Below, piece after piece: positions 1,636 through 15,672 of a DNA stretch of 16,987 nucleotides. The DNA comes from an uncultured archaeon (lineage in GTDB: Archaea; Iainarchaeota; Iainarchaeia; Iainarchaeales; CSSED10-239). The translations under genes were made by a program, and so were the position numbers. Each line of letters starts with the position of its first letter. Position 1 is the stretch's first letter. Location of the stretch: positions 1 through 16,987 of the forward strand of contig CAYXAY010000014.1 of NCBI GenBank assembly GCA_964463155.1, read 5' to 3'. Under the pieces are notes generated by a model, which did not search any database, was not told the DNA's origin, and saw only the letters and a list, made by a program, of their open reading frames with translations.

Positions 1636-3420
1636 ATGGGAATGGACTATGAAAACATACGCTGGCTTAAAGAACTAGGTTCAACTGATTCTATAACTAT
1701 TGGAAGAAAAGCAGCAAGGCTTGCACAACTAGCATCAAGTGGAATAACGGTTCCAAGGGGCTTTGTTGTAACCTCTACTGAGTTTTTTAATTTTTTACAG
1801 ACTAATAATCTTAAATCAAAGATTTCTAAAATTTTAAGAAGCATAGATTATAATAATAAAGAAGATATTGAAAACAAATCTGCAGAGATTAAACAACTTC
1901 TTCTAAAAGGAAAATTAAACCAAGAAGCAGAAGTAAAAATCTACAAGTATTATGGAAAACTTGGAGACGCGGTTGGCGGTTGGCTTCCAAGCAGTGCTGA
2001 TGCCTTTGTTGCAGTCAGGTGTTCTGTTGTTTGTGAAGATGGAGAGGTATGTGATACTAAGTTTATTGAAAAAGAGGGGGGCGCCTTAAATATCAAAGGA
2101 AAGGCAGAATTAATAAAATGTTTAAAGGAAATTTGGGGAGTACTTTATAGTCCAGATGTTTTAATATATGCATACAAGAAAGGAATAAATGTTGAAAGAC
2201 TTGGAATTGGAGTAATTATTCAAAACATGATTACAGCAAAATATTCAGGAATAACAATTTCAAGCAAAAGTTCAACTGAACCTAACACCAGTGTTATTGA
2301 AGCAGTTTATGGTTTTGGGGCAGCGCATGTAATTAAAGAAATAATTCCTGATCATTATGAAACTCAGAAGAAGCCATATCAAACACTTGGAAAAACCATT
2401 TCAAGACAAGATTGGGAACTTAAAAGAATAAAGGGACGAACTGTTAAAGATGTTGTTCCTGAATCAGAAAGAGAAAAGCAAAAGGTTAATACCCATATCC
2501 TAAAAGACTTAACAAACACAGCAGTAAAGCTTGAAGAGTTTTTTGGAACACCACAAATAATTGAGTGGGCAATGGATAAAGCAGACATTTACATTATTTC
2601 TTCAGAAGCAATAAACCCTAATGCTGCAGAAAAGACAAAGAAAAGCCCTCAGCAAAAGATTAGCTCTTTTAAAAATCAATTATTGTTAAAAGGAGTTGGA
2701 GTAAATGGAGATATTATTAATGGTGGTGTTGTTAATGTCATGAACTATAATGATCTTGAAAAAGTAAATAACGAATCAATAATTGTAACTGCAATGACTG
2801 ATCCGGAAATGGTTGGAGCAATGAAAATTGCTAGAGGAATTATTACTAATGCCGGAAGTTCGCTTTGTCATGCGGCAGTGATAGCTAAAGACATTGATAA
2901 ACCGTGTATTGTCGGAACAAGATTTGCAACAGAACAACTTCTTGATGGTGAAAAGATTCAGATGAATGGTAAGACTGGAGAAATATATGCTGTTGTTTCT
3001 CTTGATGTTGTTGATATTCATCCAAAAGAAGATGATTTCTTAGATGAAAAAGAACAAAGAACAAAAAAACTTTGGGAAGAACAAAGAGAACTAAGAGAAA
3101 AAGGAGCAGTAATTATCAATAAAAAAAAACCAAAAAAAGCAACTGTTCCGGGACACATTATATTTAATGACCCTGTTGAGAATAAACCCTCTCCCAAATT
3201 AGAAATCAAAGAAGACAAATATGTTGATTCTCAAGGAAGACTAAACATTAAGGATTTAAACCATATTGATGTTGAAAAGGTCAAGCATATTGTTATACCA
3301 ATAGATGTGTTGTTTTGTGCTGCAGATATTGCTAAATTAAAAAACGAATATCCTGGTTCTGTTTGTCTGATTGCAAAAGAAAAGATAAAAAAAGTCTTAA
3401 AAGATATTAAAGAACTTTAA
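1636..3420 (+). CDS. PEP-utilizing enzyme family protein with a PpsA/PPDK-type N-terminal ATP-grasp nucleotide-binding domain and a phosphohistidine swivel domain, but no PEP/pyruvate-binding TIM-barrel domain
   Basis: 594-aa ORF. The N-terminus IGRKAARLAQLASSGITVPRGFVVT resembles the vGgKnAsLgem..g..vP.GF motif of pyruvate,water dikinase. The mobile domain IVTAMTDPEMVGAMKIARGIITNAGSSLCHAAVIAKDIDKPCIVGT retains the catalytic His (CHAA, versus canonical TSHAA). The final ~130 aa are a Lys/Glu-rich tail plus a short hydrophobic segment, not the C-terminal PEP-utilizers_C domain. Confidence 0.8.
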   Translation: MGMDYENIRWLKELGSTDSITIGRKAARLAQLASSGITVPRGFVVTSTEFFNFLQTNNLKSKISKILRSIDYNNKEDIENKSAEIKQLLLKGKLNQEAEVKIYKYYGKLGDAVGGWLPSSADAFVAVRCSVVCEDGEVCDTKFIEKEGGALNIKGKAELIKCLKEIWGVLYSPDVLIYAYKKGINVERLGIGVIIQNMITAKYSGITISSKSSTEPNTSVIEAVYGFGAAHVIKEIIPDHYETQKKPYQTLGKTISRQDWELKRIKGRTVKDVVPESEREKQKVNTHILKDLTNTAVKLEEFFGTPQIIEWAMDKADIYIISSEAINPNAAEKTKKSPQQKISSFKNQLLLKGVGVNGDIINGGVVNVMNYNDLEKVNNESIIVTAMTDPEMVGAMKIARGIITNAGSSLCHAAVIAKDIDKPCIVGTRFATEQLLDGEKIQMNGKTGEIYAVVSLDVVDIHPKEDDFLDEKEQRTKKLWEEQRELREKGAVIINKKKPKKATVPGHIIFNDPVENKPSPKLEIKEDKYVDSQGRLNIKDLNHIDVEKVKHIVIPIDVLFCAADIAKLKNEYPGSVCLIAKEKIKKVLKDIKEL

Positions 3421-5106: not shown

Positions 5107-6266
5107 AAAAAACAATCTATCTTGATAATGCTGCAACAACAAAGATGCATTATTCTGTAAAGGAAGTAATGGCAGAAGCTGAAGAAAAATGGTTTGGTAA
5201 TTCCTCTAGTCTTCATAAAATTGGAAGGGACTCTAAGGATGAACTTGACAAGGCTAGAGAAAAGATTTTAAAAAAAGTCAATTCAAAGAACCACAAACTA
5301 ATCTTTACTTCTGGGGGAACCGAAAGCAATAATTTTGCTATTAAGGGTCTTGCTGAAGCTAACAAAACCAAGAAACACATAATAACAACAAAGATAGAAC
5401 ATGATTCTGTTATTAACACTACTAAGTTTTTAGAAAAGCAAGGATATCAAGTAACTTATCTTGATGTTGATAAGTTTGGTTTTGTTAAGATTGATGGGCT
5501 TGTTAAAGCATTAAAAAAAGAAACATTATTGGTGTCAGTAATACAAGGAAACAATGAGATTGGAACTATACAAAATATTAAAGAGATTTCAAAGATTGTT
5601 CGTGACAACGGAAGCCTTTTGCATGTTGACGCCTGCCAAAGCTTTACAAAGATTCCAATTGACATTGAAAAAGAAAATATTGATCTTTTAACAATTAACG
5701 CTCATAAGATTTATGGACCAAAAGGTGTTGGGGGTCTTTTTATAAGAGAAGAAATTAGATTTGAACCATTGCTTCTTGGCGGAGGACACGAATATAAACT
5801 TAGAAGCGGAACCGTTAATGTTCCTGGAATAGTGGGGTTTTCTAAGTCTACAGAGGTTATTGGTGAAAAAGAAATAGAACACATGACAACTCGTAGAAAC
5901 CAACTAGTTAATGGTCTAAAAAATATTGAAGACTCTTGGCTAAATGGCCCTGGTCTTGATTCTGGAAAAAGACTTTGCAATAATGCAAATATTTCGTTTA
6001 TGTATGCTGAAGGAGAAGCTATTCTTCTTTATCTTGATGCTCTTGGAATTTCTGTTTCAACTGGTTCTGCCTGTTCTTCAAATACCCTTGAACCAAGCCA
6101 TGTTCTAAAGGCCATTGGCTTAAAGCAAGAACAGACGCACGGAACTGTTAGGCTTTCTGTTGGAATTGATAACACTAAAGAAGAAATTAAATTTGTTGTT
6201 GATTCTGTTAAAAATGTTGTTGAAAGATTGCGAAAAATAAATCCATATAAATACAAGGGGAAATAA
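5103..6266 (+). CDS. iscS: Cysteine desulfurase (NifS/IscS class, PLP-dependent)
   Basis: 387-aa ORF. N-terminus IYLDNAATT, then FTSGGTESNN. PLP-lysine motif INAHKIYGPKGVGGLF. Active-site cysteine loop STGSACSS. AGAGGA SD-like tract about 8 nt upstream. Confidence 0.92.
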   Translation: MKKTIYLDNAATTKMHYSVKEVMAEAEEKWFGNSSSLHKIGRDSKDELDKAREKILKKVNSKNHKLIFTSGGTESNNFAIKGLAEANKTKKHIITTKIEHDSVINTTKFLEKQGYQVTYLDVDKFGFVKIDGLVKALKKETLLVSVIQGNNEIGTIQNIKEISKIVRDNGSLLHVDACQSFTKIPIDIEKENIDLLTINAHKIYGPKGVGGLFIREEIRFEPLLLGGGHEYKLRSGTVNVPGIVGFSKSTEVIGEKEIEHMTTRRNQLVNGLKNIEDSWLNGPGLDSGKRLCNNANISFMYAEGEAILLYLDALGISVSTGSACSSNTLEPSHVLKAIGLKQEQTHGTVRLSVGIDNTKEEIKFVVDSVKNVVERLRKINPYKYKGK

Positions 6267-6268
6267 TT

Positions 6269-6721
6269 ATGGAAAAATATTCAAAAAAAGTTATGGAAAA
6301 CTTTATGAAACCAAAGAATATGGGCGAAATAAGAAACGCAGACGGTGTTGGAAAAGTGGGCAACCCTTCCTGTGGTGACATTCTTTGGTTATACATTAAG
6401 GTTTCAAAAAACAAGCAAGGTAAAGAAATAATTAAAGACATAAAGTTTAAGACTCTTGGTTGTGCTGCCGCAATTGCAACATCTTCAATGATAACAGAAC
6501 TTGCAAAAGGAAAGGCACTTGAAGACGCTTTTAATATTACAACGGCAGATGTTGCTGCTTCTCTTGATGGTCTTCCGCCAATCAAGATGCATTGCTCAAA
6601 TCTTGCTTCAGATTGTCTTAAAGCAGCAATAAATAATTATTATTCCAAACAAGGAAAGAAAACAAATATAAAGAAATCCACTCATTGTTGTTCTAATAAG
6701 AAGTGTAGTCATAAAAAATAA
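6269..6721 (+). CDS. iscU: IscU/NifU-N-type Fe-S cluster scaffold protein with a Cys/His-rich C-terminal tail
   Basis: 150-aa ORF with the three scaffold cysteine motifs GNPSCGD, LGCAAAIATSS and MHCSNLASDCLKAAI. An extra tail STHCCSNKKCSHKK follows. The gene starts 2 nt after the desulfurase stop. Confidence 0.9.
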   Translation: MEKYSKKVMENFMKPKNMGEIRNADGVGKVGNPSCGDILWLYIKVSKNKQGKEIIKDIKFKTLGCAAAIATSSMITELAKGKALEDAFNITTADVAASLDGLPPIKMHCSNLASDCLKAAINNYYSKQGKKTNIKKSTHCCSNKKCSHKK

Positions 6722-6734
6722 AGGGGGTAGATAT

Positions 6735-7007
6735 ATGAAGGTAGATCAACATACTAAACTAGGGAAAATAATGAAGCTAAAGGGAATAAACAAAATACTT
6801 GAAAAACATAAAGTCCCTTGCGTTAGCTGTCCAATGGCTAAGTTTGAAATGGATTCGCTTGAGATTGGAACTGTTTGTGACATGTATGGTTTGAACAAAA
6901 AAGAGCTTATATTAGATATCAATCATATTCTAAAGCATAAAAGCAAAGTAGAAAAACCAAAACCCAAAAGAAAAGTCAAAAGGGCAGAATTATTATCATA
7001 CCTATAA
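6735..7007 (+). CDS. DUF1858-like protein (hybrid-cluster-protein-associated redox disulfide domain) with a basic C-terminal tail
   Basis: 90-aa ORF. ILEKHKVPCVSCPMAKFEMDSLEIGTVCDMYGLNKKELILDIN resembles the DUF1858 pattern (f...gm.C.gCp.s..esleeaa..hgid...ll.eLn). GGGGGT SD-like tract about 8 nt upstream. It is the last gene of the Fe-S operon. Confidence 0.65.
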   Translation: MKVDQHTKLGKIMKLKGINKILEKHKVPCVSCPMAKFEMDSLEIGTVCDMYGLNKKELILDINHILKHKSKVEKPKPKRKVKRAELLSYL

Positions 7008-7287
7008 TTGCAGTTAATAGGTTTGCAACAAAAGAAATTATGGTTGCTTTTTTATAATTTATTTCAAATAGCCACTTTATTAAAAATATTTCTGTCAAAA
7101 AAACGCCGATTTCTATTATTATTAAGTAATTAAATTTTGCATAAGCTATTGTTGCAATTGGATGGGTAAAACAATTAATAAGTATTACAAAAAACACCAT
7201 TCTTGTGATTGGTTTTTTTATAAAAAAGAAATAGGTAATTAATTCAAAAATAATTGTAATAAATAACAAAAAAAAATAGCTATACAT
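6976..7287 (-). CDS. Small polytopic membrane protein (about 4 predicted TM helices), function unknown
   Basis: 103-aa, very hydrophobic ORF (YFFLLFITIIFELITYFFFI, MVFFVILINCFTHPIATIAY, YLIIIEIGVFLTEIFLIKWLF, ATIISFVANLLTAIIGMIIILPF). Its ATG (7285-7287) directly abuts the TAA stop (7288-7290) of the upstream gene, implying co-transcription. Confidence 0.6.
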   Translation of the reverse strand: MYSYFFLLFITIIFELITYFFFIKKPITRMVFFVILINCFTHPIATIAYAKFNYLIIIEIGVFLTEIFLIKWLFEINYKKATIISFVANLLTAIIGMIIILPF

Positions 7288-7962
7288 TTATTTCTTTTTT
7301 TTATGTTTTCGGATAATAAATATTGCTAATATAATTAACAATGCAATTAGCGAAATCCCTAGGATCCAATAATATTTTTTGTTCATGTTATTTGAAGGAA
7401 TCGGTCTTGTATTGTTTAGGTAGGGTTTTTCTTCAATGGTTTCATTTGCATATGTGTAAATTACTTTTATTTTTGTGAAAGTTGATTCAGCATCTGAAAA
7501 ATTTGGAAGACTCATAACATCCACTACTTTTGTTAGCGAGTCGCTTTCTTTAACATCTCCTGGTGGTTTAAAATCTATTTCTTTACAAGAGAACTCTTTT
7601 GAATTTTTTATTACTTCTATTGCTGAAATATCAAAATTGATTTGGTCGATATTAGCTTGGTTAAATATAAATTGATTTAATATACTGGAATTTTCTTTTT
7701 TTGTAGAACAAACTTTAAAATTACAAAATTTATACATGCTATAACAACCATCTGGATTTGTCATTTGGTAAATATCATTCATTGCTGTGTCGCAAACTGC
7801 AAAAAAATCGTAATCTGGATATTCTGACAAATTATCAAATTTGATACAATAACTTACTCGTTTATATCCTTCCCTTATGCTGTCGGCAAAATGATTTGGA
7901 ATATATAAGCTAAACAATACAAAAACCACTAACGCAAAAATTATTTTTTTATACATAAACAT
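7288..7962 (-). CDS. Predicted surface protein with an N-terminal signal/anchor, a Cys-containing ectodomain, and a C-terminal TM anchor with a poly-Lys tail
   Basis: 224-aa ORF. N-terminal hydrophobic segment KKIIFALVVFVLFSLYIPNHFADS. Six Cys and several N-x-S/T sequons (NLS, NSS, NFS, NET, NNT) in the middle. C-terminal YYWILGISLIALLIILAIFIIRKHKKKK. No PGF-CTERM-type sorting motif is visible. Confidence 0.7.
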   Translation of the reverse strand: MFMYKKIIFALVVFVLFSLYIPNHFADSIREGYKRVSYCIKFDNLSEYPDYDFFAVCDTAMNDIYQMTNPDGCYSMYKFCNFKVCSTKKENSSILNQFIFNQANIDQINFDISAIEVIKNSKEFSCKEIDFKPPGDVKESDSLTKVVDVMSLPNFSDAESTFTKIKVIYTYANETIEEKPYLNNTRPIPSNNMNKKYYWILGISLIALLIILAIFIIRKHKKKK

Positions 7963-8013: not shown

Positions 8014-9345
8014 TTATTTTAGATATTTCAAAATATCAGATAATTCGGAAGGGTCTCTAAAACAAAGGACCTTTCTTTTTTCAAAATTCTCTAGTTGCCT
8101 TTCAGTCTTCTTTCCGCCAATTGTAACTATCATTATTGGTTTTTTGGTTTTTGCTTTTAGTTTTGCAATCTTTTCTGGAATCTTATTTGATATGCTTGCA
8201 ATCTGTAACAGCATTAAGACAGATATTGAAGAAATATTTTTGTCTTCTAACAAACACTCTATAACTTTGACAAACCGCTCATCATCTGCATCCCCAGTCA
8301 AGTCTGTGGGATTGCCAACAGAGGCATAGATTGGAACTATTTTTTTTATTTTTTCTTTGGTTGTCTTTTGCATTTCTGCTAGATTTATCTTTTGTAAACT
8401 TAGCTTGTCTGTTGTTAATACTCCAAAGCCCCCACCATTTGTTATGATTTGGGTGTTTTTTATTTTTGAAACATTGTACCAAGAATAGAATTTTGCAAGA
8501 TTAAACATTTCTTTAATTGTTTTTACTTCTTTTGCTTCTGCTTGAAGAACCGCTGCAGAAAATATTTTTGAGGCTCCTGCAATTGCTGCTGTGTGGCTTC
8601 TAACAGCCGTTGTTCCGTTATCTGTTACCCCCCCTTTAATAACAATTACTTTCTTTTTCGGTGAAACTTTTTTTATGGTTTCAAAAAATCTTTTGCCGTT
8701 TGCTATTCCTTCGACATAGCAAAGTATTATGTCTGTTTCTTTATCTTTTTCTAGATGTTTTAAAAGATCGCATTCATCAATATCTATAGCATTACCATAA
8801 GAAACAAACCTATTTATTTCTAGTTGTTCTTTGCTTGCAAGGTCAAGTATGGCAAGCCCTAGTGCCCCTGATTGAGTAATTATTGAAACTCTTCCTTTCT
8901 TTGGTAAATCATATTTTTCTCTTGCATTAAATGTTAAATCTAGATTATTGTTAAAATCCATTATTCCAAGACAATTTGGTCCGATAAGGTTGATTTTTTC
9001 TTTGTCTATTATTTTTTTTATTTCTCTTGTTATATCTGAAAACCCAGAAGTTATCATCAAAACATTTTTTATTTTCTTTTTTGCAATCTCTTTTATTACA
9101 GGTAAAGATACTGTTGCTGGAACTGCAACTACTGCAAGGTCTATTGGATCAGTTATGTCAAGCACTGAAGAAAATACTTTTTTTGATAGAAGTTTTTTGT
9201 CTGCCAATCTTGGATTGATAAAAAATACTTTTCCGTTGTAGTGGCTTGCGTTTTTAGCTATTGTGTTGCCTATGCTTCCGTTCTTATCAGAAGCTCCAAT
9301 AATTGCTACGCTTTTTGGTTTAAAGAAATTATCTAAATTTTTCAA
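8014..9345 (-). CDS. acdA: Acetate--CoA ligase (ADP-forming) alpha subunit / CoA-binding succinyl-CoA-synthetase-like protein
   Basis: 443-aa ORF. The N-terminal CoA-binding Rossmann motif FFKPKSVAIIGASDKNGSIG matches lf.PkSvAviGAS. It also has LIGPNCLGIM, IITQSGALGLAILD and a phosphohistidine-like loop RSHTAAIAGA (compare SHTGsLAG). The only in-frame start after the upstream stop is TTG at 9343-9345. Confidence 0.85.
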   Translation of the reverse strand: MKNLDNFFKPKSVAIIGASDKNGSIGNTIAKNASHYNGKVFFINPRLADKKLLSKKVFSSVLDITDPIDLAVVAVPATVSLPVIKEIAKKKIKNVLMITSGFSDITREIKKIIDKEKINLIGPNCLGIMDFNNNLDLTFNAREKYDLPKKGRVSIITQSGALGLAILDLASKEQLEINRFVSYGNAIDIDECDLLKHLEKDKETDIILCYVEGIANGKRFFETIKKVSPKKKVIVIKGGVTDNGTTAVRSHTAAIAGASKIFSAAVLQAEAKEVKTIKEMFNLAKFYSWYNVSKIKNTQIITNGGGFGVLTTDKLSLQKINLAEMQKTTKEKIKKIVPIYASVGNPTDLTGDADDERFVKVIECLLEDKNISSISVLMLLQIASISNKIPEKIAKLKAKTKKPIMIVTIGGKKTERQLENFEKRKVLCFRDPSELSDILKYLK

Positions 9346-9436
9346 GATTTAATCACATTAAAATATACTATAAATAGTATTTAAAAATATATATCTAATC
9401 ATTTCTTTATCTAATACTAGTAAATTTAGAATAAAT

Positions 9437-9979
9437 ATGGCTGAAAACTTTGAAATTATTGTTTATGGGAGAGGGGGGCTTGGAGCTAAGACTTGCGCAC
9501 AAGTAATTGCTGAAGCTGCATTACTTTCTAGAAAAGAAATACAGGCTTTTCCTGAGTATGGACCTGAAAGAAGGGGGGTTCCTGTTAGGGCGTTTGTTAG
9601 AGTTTCTGATAAGCCTATAAGGACAAGTTCAACAATCACAAAACCTGATTTTATTATAGTTATTGATTCTGGTCTGTTTTCGGTGATTACAGAATTAAAC
9701 AGCTACACTTGTCCAATAATTGTTAATACTACAAAGGACAAAAAAGAATTTAATATTAAAAGCAAAGAACTTTACGTGATTGATGCGACAAAAATATCAA
9801 TGGATAATCTTAAATCAAATAATCCAAATATGGTTTTGATAGGTGTTCTTCTTAAACTAACAAATATTATTAAGTTTGAAGATGTAAAAAAGGTAATTGA
9901 AGAAGAATTTACAAAGAAAAATAAAAAAGAAATGATTGAACCTAACCTTGTTTGTCTAAAGGCAGGGATGAAAAAGTGA
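9437..9979 (+). CDS. porG: Pyruvate:ferredoxin oxidoreductase gamma subunit
   Basis: 180-aa ORF. IIVYGRGGLGAKTCAQVIAEAA matches the GrGGqG...a..ila motif of the POR/KOR gamma family, and FPEYGPERRGVPVRAFVRVSDKPI matches s.yg.E.RGap. It is the first gene of the por cluster. Confidence 0.88.
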   Translation: MAENFEIIVYGRGGLGAKTCAQVIAEAALLSRKEIQAFPEYGPERRGVPVRAFVRVSDKPIRTSSTITKPDFIIVIDSGLFSVITELNSYTCPIIVNTTKDKKEFNIKSKELYVIDATKISMDNLKSNNPNMVLIGVLLKLTNIIKFEDVKKVIEEEFTKKNKKEMIEPNLVCLKAGMKK

Positions 9980-9985
9980 TAATTT

Positions 9986-10258
9986 ATGGCTGAAAGAAAA
10001 ATTGCAGGAATCTTAGATAAAGGAACCTCTGTTGTTAATAAGACCGGAAGTTGGAGAGATGTCAAGCCAGAATGGGATTCTAAGAAATGTATACAATGTC
10101 TTATTTGTTATACAACTTGTCCAGAGAACTGTATCTTGCTAGTCAAAGACAAGCAAGAGAATCCTAAAAGAGACAAGACAAATCTTGATTACTGTAAAGG
10201 TTGTGGGATTTGTGCTAATGTATGCCCTGTAAAATGTATAAAGATGGTAAAAGAATGA
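9986..10258 (+). CDS. porD: Pyruvate:ferredoxin oxidoreductase delta subunit (2x[4Fe-4S] ferredoxin-like)
   Basis: 90-aa ORF with two CxxCxxCxxxCP motifs (CIQCLICYTTCP and CKGCGICANVCP) and the typical TGSWR lead-in. It lies immediately after porG. Confidence 0.9.
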   Translation: MAERKIAGILDKGTSVVNKTGSWRDVKPEWDSKKCIQCLICYTTCPENCILLVKDKQENPKRDKTNLDYCKGCGICANVCPVKCIKMVKE

Positions 10259-10833
10259 CAGATATATTTGAAGATATAGAAAAGATTGAGACAATAATTA
10301 AAGTCAAGGAAAGCCAAAGGTTTGGAATAGTTGGTGATAGGCTTGAAAGCTCTGCTGAACACACTTTTAGCTGTATTCTTTTGGCACAATATTTTATTAA
10401 AAAAATTCCATATAAGCTTGACGAATTGACAGTAATCAAATTATTGAGCTATCATGATATTCAAAATGTCTTTTTCAAAGACATCAATCTTAACACATCT
10501 GATTGGAAACAGAAAAAGGACTTAGAGAAAGAAGCCTTTAAAAAAACAATAAAAAATCTTCCAAACGCTATTGTTGGAGACTATGAAAAATATTACTTGG
10601 AATTTGAAGAGCTAAAGACTACAGAAAGCAGATTTGCAAAAGCCATTGATGTCTTGGAGCCAATTATTCATGCATATAACAAGAAGGAACATTGGAAAAA
10701 CGGCAAATGGACTGAACTGGATTTAAGAAAACATAAAGAAAAATATTTAATAGAATTTCCAATACTTCTAAAATTTTTAAATGACTTTATTGATTTTGCA
10801 AACAAGAATGATTATTTTATAAGGAAGAGATAA
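10255..10833 (+). CDS. HD-domain metal-dependent phosphohydrolase, YfbR-like (HD_3) 5'-nucleotidase family
   Basis: SSAEHTFSCILLAQYF resembles nvAEHS..vA. LSYHDIQNVFFKDI is an HD..x..GD-like motif, and AKAIDVLEPI resembles the distal metal-ligand Asp motif aDkle. I chose the ATG at 10255-10257, which overlaps the porD stop (ATGA) and gives MTDIFEDIEK. The six-frame ORF opens earlier at 10222. Confidence 0.8.
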   Translation: MTDIFEDIEKIETIIKVKESQRFGIVGDRLESSAEHTFSCILLAQYFIKKIPYKLDELTVIKLLSYHDIQNVFFKDINLNTSDWKQKKDLEKEAFKKTIKNLPNAIVGDYEKYYLEFEELKTTESRFAKAIDVLEPIIHAYNKKEHWKNGKWTELDLRKHKEKYLIEFPILLKFLNDFIDFANKNDYFIRKR

Positions 10834-10834
10834 A

Positions 10835-11998
10835 ATGAATAAAATAGCATTGACTGGTGGCGAAGCAATCGCTTACGCTTTTAAGCAAATAAATATTGGT
10901 GTGTTTTCAATGTATCCTATTACGCCGCAAACACCAATCATTGAGACATTTTCAAGATTTGTAGCTAATGGGGAGGTGGATACTGAAATTATCAGAGCTG
11001 AGTCTGAACATTCTGCGCTTTCGGCAACAATTGGAGCTAGCGCTTCTGGAGCAAGAGCAGTAACTGCGACCGCCTCTCAAGGTCTTCTTTATATGTTTGA
11101 GATGCTTTCTATTGCTTCTGGTTTACGCCTTCCTATTGTTATGCCTGTAGCAAACAGAGCAATATCTGCACCAATTAATATACATTGTGATCATAGTGAC
11201 TCTATGTCTGCACTTGACCAAGGATGGATGCAAATATATTGTGAGAATGCCCAAGAAGCATATGAGATGACTATCTTCTCTCAGAAGCTTGCAGAGAAAT
11301 CTTATCTTCCAATAATGATTTGTATTGATGGTTTTTTTACAAGCCATAATCTTATATCAGTAAATGTCTTTGAAGATAGAAAGGTAAAAGATTTTGTTGG
11401 AGAATATAAGCCAGCTTATAATCTTTTAGATACTGATAAACCAATAACTGTTGGAGCATTAGCATTACCAGACAGTTATTTTGAAATAAGAAAAGAAATG
11501 TTTGATGCTTTTAGAGAAGTCAAGAATAATTATCTATCTATTGCTAAGGATTTTAAGAAAAGCTTTGGAAAAGACATAAATTTTTATGAGGACTATTTTG
11601 CAAGCATTTCTGAAACAGTAATAATTGTTCTAAGCTCAACAGCACAGAACACTAAAAATGTTGTTGATAAACTAAGAGAGCAAAAGATTAATGTCGGGTT
11701 ATTAAGACCAATACTTTATAGGCCTTTCTTATATGAAGAATATATTAAACCATTAAGCAAAGCAAAAAACATTATTGTTCTTGAGAGAAGCGAAGGCGCT
11801 GGTAGTTTTTCTGCTGTATACAAGGATATTGTTCTAACAATATTTAATCATTGTAAGACAAAAGAAAAACCAAATATCTATAATTATGTTTTTGGGTTAG
11901 GTGGCAGGGAAATTACTGAAAAACAAATAGAAGAACTGCTGGTTTCTGTTCATCAAGGAAAAGCAATTAGTAAAAGATATGTTGGGTTAGAAAAATGA
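10835..11998 (+). CDS. porA: Pyruvate:ferredoxin oxidoreductase alpha subunit
   Basis: 387-aa ORF. LTGGEAIAYAFKQINIGVFSMYPITPQTPIIE and AESEHSALSATIGASASGARAVTATASQGLLYMFE match the conserved POR alpha N-terminal domain (G.eA.a.ga......v.a.YPITPst.i.e ... ESEhsA.s...GAs.aGaR..TaTSsqGl.lM.E). AGGAAGAG SD-like tract upstream. Confidence 0.92.
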   Translation: MNKIALTGGEAIAYAFKQINIGVFSMYPITPQTPIIETFSRFVANGEVDTEIIRAESEHSALSATIGASASGARAVTATASQGLLYMFEMLSIASGLRLPIVMPVANRAISAPINIHCDHSDSMSALDQGWMQIYCENAQEAYEMTIFSQKLAEKSYLPIMICIDGFFTSHNLISVNVFEDRKVKDFVGEYKPAYNLLDTDKPITVGALALPDSYFEIRKEMFDAFREVKNNYLSIAKDFKKSFGKDINFYEDYFASISETVIIVLSSTAQNTKNVVDKLREQKINVGLLRPILYRPFLYEEYIKPLSKAKNIIVLERSEGAGSFSAVYKDIVLTIFNHCKTKEKPNIYNYVFGLGGREITEKQIEELLVSVHQGKAISKRYVGLEK

Positions 11999-12801
11999 GT
12001 ATCAAATATAGAATTAAAACAGCAGTTAATAAAATCTTTAAACGAAAGAATAAGATAAATACAATTAAAGAACTAAACGAATATGTTAGAGAGAAAAAAA
12101 TAATCGGCCAAGCAGAAATTAAAAAACTATATTTAGAACTTTTAGAAAATAGGGGATTTTTACAACATTATACAAATTTGAAATTTTTAGCAAGAGAAGC
12201 AGTAATCACTGAAATGTTTGTGAACAGATTAAGAAGACAAACAAGTCGTCCAATCGTGGTTTTAGGGATATCGCGCACAGGGGTGCCATACACCTGGTCT
12301 ATTAAGCCAACAAGGGGTTTGGTTGTTGATAAATTGTATTATCCCTCATCATATATTGAAGAAAAACTTGTGGATGTTCAAAAAAAAGTTCTAGCTAAAT
12401 TAAAAAAATATAGACGAATAAGACCTTTGTTTGTTTTTGTAGATGCCTCGTCTTCACAAAGAATGCCTTCATCTTTTGTTGGAAGTAACTACTATCATTT
12501 TATTAATGAAAAACAATCACTAAACACTCTTTTAAAAGCAAATGGCTATAAGACAAAAGTGATTGGTTATGATTGGAGTATGAAGGACTCAAGTAAATAT
12601 CTTCCAAAAGATATTGCTCTAGAAAAACTAAATGCAATACTTTTTAATCCAAGCAAGCGTTCGCAACCAAGAGAATTTCTAGGAGAGAAAAAAGAATATT
12701 CTTCAGCTCCACATGATGACAAAACTGACTATATCTATAGTGAATTTTTTGAAGAATTGGTAAAGGATTTGTGTGCTAAAGAAAAACGGAGATATTCATG
12801 A
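11995..12801 (+). CDS. Hypothetical protein, paralog 1 of a tandem pair inserted between porA and porB (possible divergent phosphoribosyltransferase-like fold, speculative)
   Basis: 268-aa ORF. Its ATG overlaps the porA stop (ATGA, 11995-11998). Conserved blocks are shared with the next gene: ITEMFVNRLRRQTSRPIVVLGISRTGVPYTWSI, PLFVFVDASSSQRMPSSFVGS, and KTKVIGYDWSMKDSSKYLPKDIALEKLNAILFNPSK. I recognise no known family with confidence. Confidence 0.85.
   Translation: MSIKYRIKTAVNKIFKRKNKINTIKELNEYVREKKIIGQAEIKKLYLELLENRGFLQHYTNLKFLAREAVITEMFVNRLRRQTSRPIVVLGISRTGVPYTWSIKPTRGLVVDKLYYPSSYIEEKLVDVQKKVLAKLKKYRRIRPLFVFVDASSSQRMPSSFVGSNYYHFINEKQSLNTLLKANGYKTKVIGYDWSMKDSSKYLPKDIALEKLNAILFNPSKRSQPREFLGEKKEYSSAPHDDKTDYIYSEFFEELVKDLCAKEKRRYS
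12568..12656 (+). repeat. Copy 1 of an 89-nt perfect direct repeat shared by the tandem paralogs
   Basis: tatgattggagtatgaaggactcaagtaaatatcttccaaaagatattgctctagaaaaactaaatgcaatactttttaatccaagcaa is identical base for base at 12568-12656 and 13302-13390 (offset 734 nt). I checked this by hand. Confidence 0.97.
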
Positions 12802-13535
12802 GAAGAAGCAAAAGGGTTGAAACACCAAATCAAAAAATAAAAAAAATAATGCCTATCTATAGATATTACTTGCGATTAGCTCATCCACTGCCAAAACTGA
12901 AATATTTGGCGAAAGAAGTTCTAATAACTGAATTGTTTGTGAATAGATTAAGAAGACAAACAACGCGCCCAATTGTGGTAATAGGAATAGAAAGAACAGG
13001 AGTGCCATACACTTGGTCTATTACTCCAGATAATAAAAGAGTGTTTTTAGATTCTTTAGTTTATAGTTCAACAAAGATACACACTACTGTATTTGCACAA
13101 AAAACCAACTTGCTTAGAAAGATTGGAGAATATAGAAAAGAGCTGAGAGATCCTTTGTTTGTTTTTGTAGATGCGTCATCATCTGCAAGAATGCCTTCGT
13201 CTTTTGTTGGATCGCCAGAATTAAACGGACCATATAAACTCCGAAAAGATTGCATGGAAACTGTTCTTAATCAAAATAATCTTAAAACAAAAGTGGTTGG
13301 GTATGATTGGAGTATGAAGGACTCAAGTAAATATCTTCCAAAAGATATTGCTCTAGAAAAACTAAATGCAATACTTTTTAATCCAAGCAAAGAGCGAAAA
13401 ATAAAATATAAGTTTGAAGGAGAAAAGATAGAATATTCCTCTGCGATACACGATGATAAATGTTCGTTAATGGACTCTCTTGAATTTAAAGAAACAGTAT
13501 TAGATATTGTTAAATATTATAAAAGAAATTTGTGA
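12798..13535 (+). CDS. Hypothetical protein, paralog 2 of the tandem pair inserted between porA and porB
   Basis: 245-aa ORF. Its ATG overlaps the paralog-1 stop (ATGA, 12798-12801), with a GGAG SD-like tract about 8 nt upstream. It shares the same conserved blocks (ITELFVNRLRRQTTRPIVVIGIERTGVPYTWSI, PLFVFVDASSSARMPSSFVGS, KTKVVGYDWSMKDSSKYLPKDIALEKLNAILFNPSK). The N- and C-termini are divergent. Confidence 0.85.
   Translation: MRRSKRVETPNQKIKKIMPIYRYYLRLAHPLPKLKYLAKEVLITELFVNRLRRQTTRPIVVIGIERTGVPYTWSITPDNKRVFLDSLVYSSTKIHTTVFAQKTNLLRKIGEYRKELRDPLFVFVDASSSARMPSSFVGSPELNGPYKLRKDCMETVLNQNNLKTKVVGYDWSMKDSSKYLPKDIALEKLNAILFNPSKERKIKYKFEGEKIEYSSAIHDDKCSLMDSLEFKETVLDIVKYYKRNL
13302..13390 (+). repeat. 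Copy 2 of the 89-nt perfect direct repeat shared by the tandem paralogs
   Basis: Same 89-nt string as 12568-12656. Flanking sequence drops to scattered identity within a few nucleotides on the 3' side and within about 20 nt on the 5' side. Confidence 0.97.
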
Positions 13536-14467
13536 TAAATATGGACATAAAAGAACTAGCTAAAAAAATTAATGAGAAAAACACAATGGTTAGTGGGCAT
13601 CGAACTTGTGTTGGATGTCCAATTGGAGTAATCTGCAGAACCGTTGCTTCTGCTAGCGATAAACCGGTTGTTGCTGTTAGCGCTACATCTTGTGCAGAAG
13701 TTACAACTACTGTTTATCCTCAGACATCTTGGAATATTCCATGGATACATTCTGCGTTTGCTAATGCGGCTGCAACAATTTCAGGAGTTGAATCCGCATA
13801 TAAGGCACAAAAGAAAAAAGGAAAAATAAAAAAAGACATTAATTTTTTAGTTATTGCTGGGGACGGCGGAAGTTTTGACATAGGTTTACAAAGTTTGTCT
13901 GGTGCTCTTGAAAGAGGACATGATTTCGTATTTTTGTGTTATGATAACGAAGGTTATATGAATACTAATAACCAACGTTCATCAGCAACGCCAAGAGGAG
14001 CAATAACAACAACTACCCCTGCTGGAAAAAATTCTTTTGGAAAAGTTGAGTTTAGTAAAGATCTTGTTAAAATTGCAACCGCTCACAATATCCCTTATGT
14101 TGCTCAAGCAAATACTAGTAACTTAATTGATCTTTATAACAAAGCAAAAAAAGCATTTGAAAAGAAAGGTCCAGCAGTGCTTGTTGTGTTTGCGGCTTGT
14201 CCAACAAACATGAAGGCAGAGTCTTCAAAAACAATTGAAATTAGTAAACTTGCAACAGAAAGTAATTTCTGGCCACTTTATGAAATTGAAGATGGGAAAT
14301 TAACTCTCAATTACAAGCCAAGCAAAAGAATAGCAATAGAAGAATTTCTAAAAGCCCAGAGCAAATTCAAAGAAGTACTAAAACCAAAAAACAATGGTGT
14401 TTTAAAAACAATTCAAGAAGAAGTAGATAGAAGATATAATGAATTATTAAAACTTGAAAAAATATGA
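13532..14467 (+). CDS. porB: Pyruvate:ferredoxin oxidoreductase beta subunit (TPP- and [4Fe-4S]-binding)
   Basis: 311-aa ORF. It has GHRTCVGCP, SATSCAEV and FAACPTNM cluster cysteines. The TPP motif is IAGDGGSFDIGLQSLSGALERGHDFVFLCYDNEGYMNTNNQRSSATPRGAITTTTPAGK. The start is either GTG at 13532, overlapping the upstream stop (GTGA), or ATG at 13541. Confidence 0.92.
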   Translation: MINMDIKELAKKINEKNTMVSGHRTCVGCPIGVICRTVASASDKPVVAVSATSCAEVTTTVYPQTSWNIPWIHSAFANAAATISGVESAYKAQKKKGKIKKDINFLVIAGDGGSFDIGLQSLSGALERGHDFVFLCYDNEGYMNTNNQRSSATPRGAITTTTPAGKNSFGKVEFSKDLVKIATAHNIPYVAQANTSNLIDLYNKAKKAFEKKGPAVLVVFAACPTNMKAESSKTIEISKLATESNFWPLYEIEDGKLTLNYKPSKRIAIEEFLKAQSKFKEVLKPKNNGVLKTIQEEVDRRYNELLKLEKI

Positions 14468-15672
14468 ATAGCAATAAAACAAAACTTAGTGGTCTAAAGA
14501 AGATACTTGTCGGAATGCAGATGCTTTTTGTGGCGTTTGGTGCTGTTGTTCTTGTTCCTTTGCTTGTCGGCATTGATCCTGCAATCGCTCTTTTTACTGC
14601 AGGCTGTGGAACATTAATCTTTCATTTGATTACAAGAGGGAAAGTTCCTGTTTTTTTAGGAAGCTCTTTTGTGTTTATTGCTCCAGTCATTAAGGCAACA
14701 GAACTCTATGGCTTTCCTGGAACTTTTGGAGGACTTATGGCTGTTGGTGTTGTTTATATGACAATGTCTTTTATAGTAAGGAAAAAAGGAATCGCTTTTG
14801 TTCAAAAACTTTTCCCACCAATTGTTGTTGGACCAGTAATTATGATTATTGGTCTTTCCCTTGCTGGTGTTGGAGTAACAATGGCAAGCAAAAACTGGCT
14901 TCTTGCTATCATTGCCTTACTTACTGCGATTTTTGTTGTAATCTTTGGTAAAGGGACAATAAGGCTTTTGCCAGTAATTATTGGAATAATTGTTAGTTAT
15001 ATTGTTGCTGTAATATTGGGACTTGTTGACTTTACAAAACTTATTAATGCTCCGTGGTTTTCTGTTCCTTCATTTAGTATGCCTGTTTTTAATATTCATG
15101 CAATCTTGTTTTTGATACCTGTTGCTGTTGCTCCAATCATTGAACATATTGGAGACATGTATGCAATTTCTAAAGCAACAAACAATAATTTTGTAAAAAA
15201 ACCTGGAATCCACAGGACCCTTCTTGGAGATGGACTTGCAACTTTCTTTTCAGGGTTTGTTGGAGGGACACCAACAACAACTTACTCTGAAGTAACTGGT
15301 GCAATAATCTTAACAAAAATAACTGATCCTGTTATCTTAAGGATTGCTGCAATTACTGCTATTTGCTTTGCGTTCCTTGGAAAGATTACTGGTTTTTTAT
15401 ACACTATACCTGAAGCAATACTCGGGGGAGTTATGATTCTATTGTTTGGAATGATTAGTATTGTTGGAATCAAATCTCTAGTAGAATCAAGAACAAACAT
15501 GAACAACACAAAGAACATGGTGGTTGTTGGGATAATGCTTAGTATTGGTGTTGGCGGAGCCTTAATTGGTCTTGGAAATTTTGTTTTAACTGGAATTGCT
15601 CTTGCAAGCATTGTTGGAATAACATTTAATCTAGTATTGCCTGACAAAGAAAAAGATCTAAGAAATATTTAA
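14464..15672 (+). CDS. uraA: Uracil permease (NCS2/NAT nucleobase:cation symporter family)
   Basis: 402-aa polytopic ORF that aligns by eye along its whole length with E. coli UraA. MQMLFVAFGAVVLVPLLVG matches LQHLFAMFGATVLVPVLF. VPVFLGSSFVFIAPV matches IPAYLGSSFAFISPV. IIEHIGD matches IAEHVGH. TTTYSEVTG matches NTTYGENIG. Its ATG overlaps the porB stop (ATGA, 14464-14467). Confidence 0.93.
   Translation: MNSNKTKLSGLKKILVGMQMLFVAFGAVVLVPLLVGIDPAIALFTAGCGTLIFHLITRGKVPVFLGSSFVFIAPVIKATELYGFPGTFGGLMAVGVVYMTMSFIVRKKGIAFVQKLFPPIVVGPVIMIIGLSLAGVGVTMASKNWLLAIIALLTAIFVVIFGKGTIRLLPVIIGIIVSYIVAVILGLVDFTKLINAPWFSVPSFSMPVFNIHAILFLIPVAVAPIIEHIGDMYAISKATNNNFVKKPGIHRTLLGDGLATFFSGFVGGTPTTTYSEVTGAIILTKITDPVILRIAAITAICFAFLGKITGFLYTIPEAILGGVMILLFGMISIVGIKSLVESRTNMNNTKNMVVVGIMLSIGVGGALIGLGNFVLTGIALASIVGITFNLVLPDKEKDLRNI

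Follow-up and report, generated by a model that had tools for sequence, protein, structure and literature searches.

Interleaving of por subunit genes with other genes in an uncultured archaeon of the Iainarchaeota and its relatives

How do other genes come to lie between the genes for the subunits of a single enzyme, and what do they do there? The question is raised by a 16,987-nt stretch of DNA from an uncultured archaeon assigned to the Iainarchaeota (contig CAYXAY010000014.1 of assembly GCA_964463155.1), hereafter called the window, in which the genes for pyruvate:ferredoxin oxidoreductase (POR) are not contiguous. These small archaea live by fermentation, with POR as the central energy-conserving step, and the por operon is commonly regarded as an invariable block of four genes, with the canonical archaeal order porG/C-porD-porA-porB found in Pyrococcus/Thermococcus and methanogens. 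The window has eight same-strand genes over positions 9437-15672, namely porG, porD, an HD phosphohydrolase gene (HD), porA, two paralogues of an orphan family that we call X (X1 and X2), porB and an NCS2 permease gene. An earlier note on this DNA had described the additional genes as foreign genes within an intact, co-transcribed operon. Comparison with related loci revealed a whole clade that tolerates, keeps and exchanges unrelated genes inside the por block. We consider it probable, although far from assured, that the por operon of this clade is a long-lived and still changing host for passenger genes, which settle at cistron boundaries and are dispensable for POR.

The eight genes, all on the forward (+) strand, are packed closely. 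The gamma-subunit gene porG (9437-9979; 180 aa) is followed by porD (9986-10258; 90 aa), encoding the delta subunit with two [4Fe-4S] centers. HD (10255-10833; 192 aa), of the HD_3/YfbR/HDDC2 type, has an ATGA overlap with the porD stop, and the alpha-subunit gene porA (10835-11998; 387 aa) starts 1 nt past the HD stop. X1 (11995-12801; 268 aa) has an ATGA overlap with porA, and its tandem paralogue X2 (12798-13535; 245 aa) has another with X1. The cluster is completed by porB (13541-14467; 308 aa), encoding the thiamine pyrophosphate (TPP)-binding beta subunit, and by the gene of a uracil-permease-like NCS2 nucleobase:cation symporter (14464-15672; 402 aa), which has an ATGA overlap with porB. 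A six-frame list of open reading frames (ORFs) and a junction script reproduced exactly the gene order and coordinates given in the earlier note, and its statement that there is almost no DNA between the genes was also confirmed, the successive gaps being 6, -4, +1, -4, -4, +5 (or -4) and -4 nt. The alternative value belongs to the X2/porB junction, where the note had proposed a GTGA overlap at 13532-13535. This overlap was not upheld, because every orthologous porB begins MN.KEL..., which corresponds to the window ATG at 13541 (MDIKEL) and not to the GTG at 13532, which would add three residues. The overlap is most likely a mechanical extension of the ORF, and the real X2/porB junction a 5-nt gap.

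Upstream of the cluster, the sole sizeable non-coding stretch is an AT-rich region of 91 nt (9346-9436) between porG and a divergent gene for the alpha-type protein of ADP-forming acetyl-CoA synthetase (ACD). It contains a TATA-like run, TTTAAAAATATATA, at about 9381-9394, and is the putative promoter region of the por cluster. A single transcript with coupled translation, as the earlier note proposed, is a reasonable expectation from the -4, +1, +5 and +6 junctions together with published work on ATGA overlaps in archaea, for which translation by termination-reinitiation has been demonstrated (PMC6728339, PMC10666635). According to the ORF list and junction script, genes are packed tightly across the window in general and not only in the cluster, in keeping with a genome that leaves little space for separate promoters. 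A sigma-70 promoter and terminator scan gave counts no higher than the shuffled expectation, its bacterial-type models being uninformative for an archaeon, and a scan for oligo-T and TATA patterns gave no discrimination in this AT-rich DNA. An Rfam scan found no RNA element in the cluster; its sole match was a tRNA-Cys outside it.

The gene assignments were checked by Pfam and NCBIfam profile scans. PorG was identified as the gamma subunit by the POR domain PF01558 (4.8e-33) and by 161.5 bits with TIGR02175 (cut-off 81.1), and PorD as the delta subunit by Fer4 families, by 87.6 bits with TIGR02179 (cut-off 60) and by two CxxCxxCxxxCP motifs in its translation. PorA has the POR_N (PF01855, 2.1e-71) and PFOR_II (PF17147, 5.9e-21) domains of the alpha subunit. 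PorB has TPP_enzyme_C (PF02775, 3.8e-20), and its translation contains GDGGSFDIG...YDNEGYMNTNNQ, i.e., the TPP motif (GDGG...NTNNQ), together with the cysteines of CVGC, SCAEV and AACP, as expected of the beta subunit. With these domains and cofactor motifs, all four subunits are intact, in agreement with the earlier note. The best NCBIfam matches, PorA_Arch for PorA (419.5 bits) and PorB for PorB (343.8 bits, 7.8e-103), fall under their equivalog cut-offs of 550 and 405, respectively, and pyruvate is therefore the likely rather than the proven substrate.

The por loci of relatives, designated here by L numbers, were gathered via X homologues and by a metagenome scan with PorA, the clade being defined by PorA sequences 62-91% identical. 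With the subunit genes abbreviated to G, D, A and B and methyltransferase genes to MT, L017 (PorA 87%) has a clean G-D-A-B, and L018/L019 (87%) have the same order with a LAGLIDADG intein in porB. HD is present in L021 (86%; G-D-HD-A-B, with the intein) and L022/L024 (73%; G-D-HD-A-B). The order G-D-A-X-B with the intein was found in L001-L003/L013 (69%) and also in L012 (72%), where a kinase-like gene on the opposite strand lies between G and D. In L023 (69%) five tandem methyltransferase paralogues stand between G and D, followed by A-X. The most heavily occupied arrangements are G-MT-D-X-Y194-A-X-MT-B in L004-L006 (68%), G-D-X-HD-A-X-B in L009 (62%) and G-D-X-Y194-A... in L010/L011 (63%), where Y194 is a second orphan family. 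The window and L037 have G-D-HD-A-X-(X)-B, the L037 contig ending after X1, and the L007/L008 contigs begin within or just past porA and have X directly upstream of porB.

The occupants differ from slot to slot. The porG/porD slot holds S-adenosylmethionine (SAM) methyltransferase genes or the opposite-strand kinase-like gene; the porD/porA slot holds X and then HD or Y194; and the porA/porB slot holds X, in some cases with a further X or a methyltransferase gene behind it. HD occurs at porD/porA in the window, L037, L021, L022/L024 and L009. X occurs at porA/porB in L001-L003/L013, L004-L006, L009, L012, L023 and L037 and at porD/porA in L004, L009 and L010/L011; altogether, it was found inside por in nine distinct operons. 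Eight of the 10 operons seen across all three junctions contain at least one embedded gene. A one-off insertion of foreign genes, as the earlier note had implied, does not account for this recurrence or for the slot-specific clades described below. HD and X are thus embedded repeatedly, but not always, as the clean porGDAB of L017 shows. The interleaved order is widespread within the clade, but we found no description of an interleaved por operon, or of por gene order in DPANN archaea, in the searchable literature. More distant POR operons (PorA 31-47%) are contiguous, except for L028/L030.

Three of these occupants deserve mention. The five Methyltransf_23-type paralogues of L023 (1963-5693) are 40-46% identical to the single copy of L004, and in PHROGs and PADLOC scans the methyltransferases and the kinase-like gene gave generic fold-level matches only. 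Y194 (L040 7001-7576; L004 6258-6842; L010 4228-4827) is an orphan family well conserved across the DPANN (82 clusters, 52-80% identical, no Pfam match), and it stands in for HD in two por operons; in Ca. Iainarchaeum it lies between RadA and a Rad50-like gene. We considered a LOG/MogA-like identity for Y194 and rejected it, as neither PDB nor Pfam gave support. In the higher-GC operons L028 (3321-8267) and L030 (5944-10742; PorA 45%), a NuoE-like gene (151 aa) and a NuoF-like gene (612 aa) lie between porA and porB, and porB has a cysteine-rich N-terminal extension of 196 aa with 2Fe-2S/4Fe-4S-like motifs. This system looks like an NAD(P)H-linked 2-oxoacid oxidoreductase, which means that the porA/porB junction can also hold true redox partners.

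The intein of porB occupies one fixed site in the TPP motif (...GYMN/CLSKD...VVHN/TGNQ, the slashes marking its ends) in L001 (5717-7762), L007 (1117-3156), L012 (8703-10751), L019 (7168-9207), L021 (6534-8579) and L026 (1470-3521). The window porB reads GYMNTNNQ there and is intein-free. No relevant description of a POR intein was found in the searchable literature.

How old are these residents? In neighbour-joining trees of X and PorA, which have long branches, the X copies of the porD/porA slot (L004, L009 and L010) form one clade and the porA/porB-slot copies of L004 and L009 another, and each of the two slot-specific clades spans two deep PorA clades. The window X1 and X2 form a clade of their own, and the X of L037 is the orthologue of X1 (84% identical). 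Because the slots recur and the slot clades span deep PorA clades, HD and X appear to be old residents of the por operon in this clade. The pattern fits an old duplication with long residence and subsequent losses, followed by a recent tandem duplication of X in the lineage of the window. The porA/porB-slot X of L004 groups with that of L009 rather than with the copies in L001 and L023, its neighbours by PorA; considering this and the long branches, transfer of X may also have occurred.

The locus seems to have recombined as well. Nucleotide identity between the window and L037 is about 75% over 9430-11100 and about 91% over 11300-12800, with the jump near 11200-11300 in porA. The two halves of the window PorA have different nearest relatives, the X-less L017 type for the N-terminal half (91%) and L037 for the C-terminal half (92%). 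These patterns indicate a mosaic locus with a recombination breakpoint in porA, and suggest that the occupied and empty states are exchangeable through the conserved por flanks.

The ratio of nonsynonymous to synonymous substitutions (dN/dS) against L037 is 0.27 for X1, 0.09 for porA and 0.13 for porG. Because of this value for X1, the invariant metal ligands of HD in its five por-embedded orthologues and the retention of every family-invariant residue in X1 and X2, we regard X1, X2 and HD as functional genes under selection. The first two of these observations also support the view of the earlier note that this is not a decaying operon. POR, for its part, does not appear to depend on the passengers, with their absence judged at por loci. 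There are relatives with a PorA 85-88% identical in which X, and in some of them HD as well, is missing and the junctions are clean; no column of the PorA alignment (400 columns) distinguishes X-bearing from X-less operons, and PorA and PorB have the same lengths in both. We therefore regard the passengers as probably dispensable for POR.

HD is most likely a metal-dependent (deoxy)nucleoside-monophosphate phosphohydrolase, as predicted from its sequence. It resembles the YfbR/HDDC2 5'-deoxynucleotidases (HD_3, PF12917) in passing the Pfam cut-offs, with 72.1 bits for HD_3 (6.8e-20; cut-off 22.5) and 32.3 bits for YfbR-like (cut-off 25.9), and in keeping the H...HD...D metal ligands (H36, H67-D68 and D132), which are invariant across the five orthologues mentioned above. 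Its closest solved structures are also of this type (PDB 3kh1, 1.3e-8; HDDC2, 3e-4). It differs from them in its score with the YfbR equivalog NF003009, which at 18.8 bits is far under the cut-off of 122 and does not permit equivalog assignment, in the replacement of the usual HDxxE Glu by Asn in the subgroup to which it belongs, and in its setting inside por. The start at 10255, rather than at the upstream ATG 10222, is backed by the orthologues. A PADLOC scan gave no match for HD or X.

X1 and X2 are 59% identical over 210 aa (E = 1e-76), and neither has a match in Pfam, NCBIfam or PHROGs; a Pfam scan of all 29 aligned X members found no family common to more than two of them. A word-indexed search of 5.8 billion proteins yielded 11 relatives of X, and an exhaustive hidden Markov model search of 1.84 billion representative proteins yielded 36, of which 26 had E < 1e-30. 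An exact look-up of the window X2 in a contig index returned no record, and a scan of 2.9 million viral contigs (IMG/VR) for relatives of X was negative. The 29 sequences have in common the motifs LA(R/K)E..ITE.F.NRL, RTGxPYTW, FVDxSxSxRMPSSF.G, ILFNPS and A.HDD, with invariant Gly, Tyr, Asp, Ser and Asn-Pro and near-invariant Thr, His-Asp and Arg residues. An AlphaFold2 model of X2 residues 30-245, built with the 29 sequences, is a confidently predicted alpha/beta structure (pLDDT 89.8, pTM 0.89) with parallel strands, each terminating in a conserved motif. X looks like an enzyme in this model, the strand-end motifs being placed as expected of an active site.

Neither structure nor sequence comparison led to a known family. 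A Foldseek search with the X2 model against PDB gave no match with E < 0.05, and searches with two AlphaFold2 models of X against PDB and BFVD gave none with E < 0.01 and nothing convincing in BFVD. The PDB suggestions (SIS, HDAC/arginase and phosphoribosyltransferases) reached TM scores of at most 0.34. An SIS phosphosugar-binding domain and an HDAC-arginase fold were rejected on this basis (best E 0.012-0.09, TM 0.23-0.34). Phosphoribosyltransferases came into consideration through the motifs GIERTG and FVDASSS and the adjacent uracil permease, and were likewise rejected: the hhalign probability of the 29-sequence profile against the type I enzyme Apt of Escherichia coli was 0.1, the Foldseek matches had probabilities of at most 0.60 and TM scores of at most 0.48, and the motif is D-A-S-S-S, as against two acidic residues followed by TGxT in the phosphoribosyl pyrophosphate loop. 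Sequence searches of PDB, single and profile, gave only noise (AvpA, E = 0.16; a sugar-binding protein, E = 1.1).

The core subfamily of X is por-embedded, and distant members stand alone in other archaea (L014, L015, L016, L038 and L039). The stand-alone X of L016 adjoins an Rpr2/ribosomal-protein cluster, EMG1 and a CDP-alcohol phosphatidyltransferase gene; that of L039 adjoins a CDP-alcohol phosphatidyltransferase gene and that of L015 a geranylgeranyl reductase gene. Three stand-alone copies (L016 6001-8391, L039 140-1548 and L015 6001-8099) are thus beside lipid-synthesis genes, which may be chance. The X ORF of L012 (7539-8699; 386 aa) is extended by 140 aa at the N terminus and reads SAYPNNND where the His-Asp motif has been lost; this copy may be degenerating. 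L007 carries an extra, frameshift-split X outside por (5842-6728), amid a DDE transposase gene, a PemK toxin gene and a HEPN/nucleotidyltransferase pair. Three stretches of a giant protein with a weak protein-kinase domain (P0035, 3834 aa) match the N-terminal part of the X profile (E = 5e-11).

The last gene of the cluster belongs to the NCS2 family, with Xan_ur_permease (PF00860) at 2.2e-80 and 339.9 bits with TIGR00801 (cut-off 291.8). Its 326.4 bits with the uracil-permease equivalog NF007995 are under the cut-off of 477, and it is predicted to move a nucleobase. An orthologue (79% identical) lies 1.3-2.4 kb downstream of porB in L012 and L019, and direct joining to porB was seen in the window only. 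Because the genes that intervene in these relatives, an acetate kinase gene on the minus strand (stretch L012 10752-11951, L019 9349-11286) and, in L019, an NYN gene, are both missing from the window, a deletion in the lineage of the window most likely brought the permease gene next to porB. Acetate kinase is uncommon in archaea, and no phosphotransacetylase gene was seen near it in L012 or L019.

We favour the view of the por operon as a changing host because the passengers are mixed, otherwise stand-alone and variable among close relatives, and because POR shows no sign of adapting to them. Elsewhere they are ordinary single genes, Y194 beside RadA/Rad50-like genes and distant X alone. If so, one transcript would start in the 91-nt region upstream of porG, ribosomes would pass from gene to gene by termination-reinitiation over the -4, +1, +5 and +6 nt junctions, and the passengers would be made whenever POR is made. 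They would spread by homologous recombination through the conserved por flanks. The version in the window would have arisen by keeping HD, duplicating X in tandem and joining the permease to porB after loss of the acetate-kinase/NYN genes. Several points weigh against this view. Co-transcription and translational coupling are only what we infer from the junctions. The presence of X at two junctions is not predicted by random insertion and hints at a por-related function or a targeting mechanism. Overlapping gene pairs often code for subunits of one complex (PMC10666635), which would favour X and POR being physically linked. The trees were built by neighbour-joining and have long branches, so that repeated gains may account for the pattern in place of ancient residency followed by losses, and the absence of X and HD in relatives was scored at the por locus only.

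Could the interleaving be an artefact of chimeric metagenome assembly or of gene calling? The window is a single 17-kb contig of a metagenome-assembled genome (MAG), and the porB/permease overlap (14464-14467) is the only junction without an independent copy. In addition, a public IMG gene call (P0042, L037 4586-6406) wrongly fuses HD and porA into a protein of 606 aa, reading TGA as sense and running past the porA stop. This fusion is a caller artefact and not recoding, because translation with genetic code 11 gives every gene, and every ORF of the window, the same end as its homologues. Nevertheless, an artefact is very improbable. L037, which comes from another metagenome and has 83% nucleotide identity over 3.4 kb, repeats porG-porD-HD-porA-X1 with the same junctions; it ends about 20 nt past the X1 stop and is too short to show any X2. 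The adjacency of X and porB recurs in at least four further independent lineages, the flanking synteny (IscS-IscU ... ACD / por ... permease ... Top6A) is common to L012, L017 and L019, and the GC content, 0.25-0.38 across the window, is even over the cluster (0.30-0.36). A different explanation, that X and perhaps other passengers are selfish mobile genes targeting the cistron junctions of a conserved, highly expressed operon, would account for the patchy distribution of X among close relatives, its variable copy number and its insertion exactly at gene boundaries. The frameshifted copy of L007 beside a transposase and toxin-antitoxin genes, the grouping of the L004 porA/porB-slot X with that of L009, and the greater similarity between the window and L037 in the X-bearing half of the locus are also consistent with it, as are the inteins in porB and the nearby iscU, which suggest that the operon is visited by homing elements. 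We think it improbable all the same, considering that X has no nuclease, integrase or transposase match in Pfam, NCBIfam, PHROGs or PADLOC and no viral relative, that 4-nt overlaps leave no room for recombination sites, that the slot-specific clades suggest vertical descent, that distant relatives are single genes in housekeeping neighbourhoods, and that a dN/dS of 0.27 points to a cellular function.

A more serious competitor, although in our judgement still rather unlikely, is a functional tie between the embedded genes and POR or the pathway that feeds it. HD, the permease and X might work together as a module that scavenges nucleotides and is expressed along with pyruvate oxidation and ACD. 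The only route to energy identified in a complete Diapherotrite genome leads from nucleotide salvage through pyruvate and acetyl-CoA to acetate, with POR in a central place, and these archaea are predicted to obtain ATP in this way (PMC5905446). A 5'-deoxynucleotidase-type HD with intact ligands and an NCS2 permease of uracil type that stays near por in L012 and L019 would suit such a module, but the permease is joined directly to porB in the window only. Alternatively, X might serve POR as an additional subunit, an assembly factor or a regulator and be produced at a fixed ratio to PorA and PorB. X lies at two junctions of one operon and has been retained in por while diverging to 35-45% identity; the tendency of overlapping pairs to encode one complex (PMC10666635) and the genuine NuoE/NuoF-like electron-transfer partners between porA and porB in L028/L030 point the same way. 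That X is specifically a new POR component in the Iainarchaeota/Diapherotrites, be it a subunit, an assembly factor or a modifying enzyme, with a new fold family nearly confined to por, seems to us unlikely. A functional tie is hard to reconcile with the clean junctions of relatives whose PorA is 85-88% identical and which lack X and in some cases HD, with a PorA in which no position co-varies with X, and with subunit lengths that are equal with or without it. The other occupants (methyltransferases, the kinase-like gene and Y194, which normally lies by RadA/Rad50) have no evident POR tie, the X of L012 has lost its His-Asp motif, the fold of X gives no functional lead, and the phosphoribosyltransferase similarity has been rejected.

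The remaining genes of the window provide the context of the cluster. The ACD alpha-type gene (8014-9345, minus strand; Succ_CoA_lig 2.4e-45 and CoA_binding_2), whose product catalyses the step after POR, holds the same position in L001, L003, L012, L017, L019, L021 and L037. The gene for topoisomerase VI subunit A lies downstream of the permease. The window also contains genes for RadA, a PPDK_N/PEP-utilizer protein, tRNA-Cys, an Mre11-like phosphoesterase, ArsR, IscS, IscU and three small proteins without a family match. The closest named homologues of RadA (82-88% identity) are from Candidatus Diapherotrites and Candidatus Iainarchaeum MAGs, which makes the source a DPANN archaeon of that group. 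The PPDK_N protein (1636-3420, +; 594 aa) combines PPDK_N with the PEP-utilizer mobile domain but has no C-terminal phosphoenolpyruvate (PEP)/pyruvate-binding domain, and so falls short of a complete PEP synthase or pyruvate phosphate dikinase (PPDK). IscU in the window (6269-6721, 150 aa) is intein-free, and in L012 (1005-2600) and L019 (1253-2875) it carries a LAGLIDADG intein (531-540 aa). The three small genes lie between IscU and ACD, at 6735-7007 (+), 6976-7287 (-) and 7288-7962 (-). The first of them (90 aa) is kept in L003, L012, L017, L019, L021, L024, L025 and L037, and the other two (103 and 224 aa) only in L017, L021 and L025.

The locus offers a natural system for asking by what means new genes come to be expressed where genomes leave hardly any space between genes. 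It singles out the orphan family X, for which the location inside por is the only hint of function. Should X or HD turn out to act on POR or on the flow of carbon from nucleotides, a missing piece would be added to DPANN energy metabolism. For annotators, the comparison is a caution that por genes appearing 'split' in DPANN MAGs are genuine and do not result from misassembly.

Several known systems resemble this one in part. In T-even phages, free-standing homing endonuclease genes lie between conserved genes. Like them, the passengers are small genes between conserved, co-oriented, essential genes, patchily distributed and presumably spread via flanking homology; unlike them, X and HD have no nuclease motif or viral copies, and X falls into slot-specific vertical clades. 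An identity of X as a free-standing homing endonuclease or mobile element was rejected for want of a domain match or an IMG/VR relative. The NCBIfam models of NADH-dependent phenylglyoxylate dehydrogenase match the POR subunits weakly. In Methanococcus maripaludis, the por operon contains porE and porF after the subunit genes; their products are cysteine-rich Fe-S proteins thought to pass electrons to POR. The window is similar in having extra genes with the subunit genes, co-transcribed there and presumably so here. HD and X, however, have no Fe-S cysteine motifs in translation or alignment, are situated among the subunit genes and are missing in close relatives, and we rejected a porE/porF-type accessory identity for them on the grounds of motif and placement. 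The L028/L030 operons are closer in layout, with non-subunit genes tightly packed between porA and porB, but there the inserts are electron-transfer modules and porB has gained an Fe-S domain, whereas the window inserts have no redox motifs.

Compared with the canonical por operon, the window has three non-POR genes among the subunit genes and a permease gene at the 3' end, so that the subunit genes are not contiguous, and its PorA and PorB score under the equivalog cut-offs. The four subunits themselves, their domains and cofactor motifs and the relative order of their genes (G, D, A, B) are the same, and the contiguous form persists in L017 and L019, which are close relatives of the window. 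Four-subunit POR, HD phosphohydrolases, NCS2 permeases and operons with extra genes are all already known; what is new is the clade-wide, slot-structured and still changing interleaving of POR subunit genes with other genes, with an orphan family housed inside.

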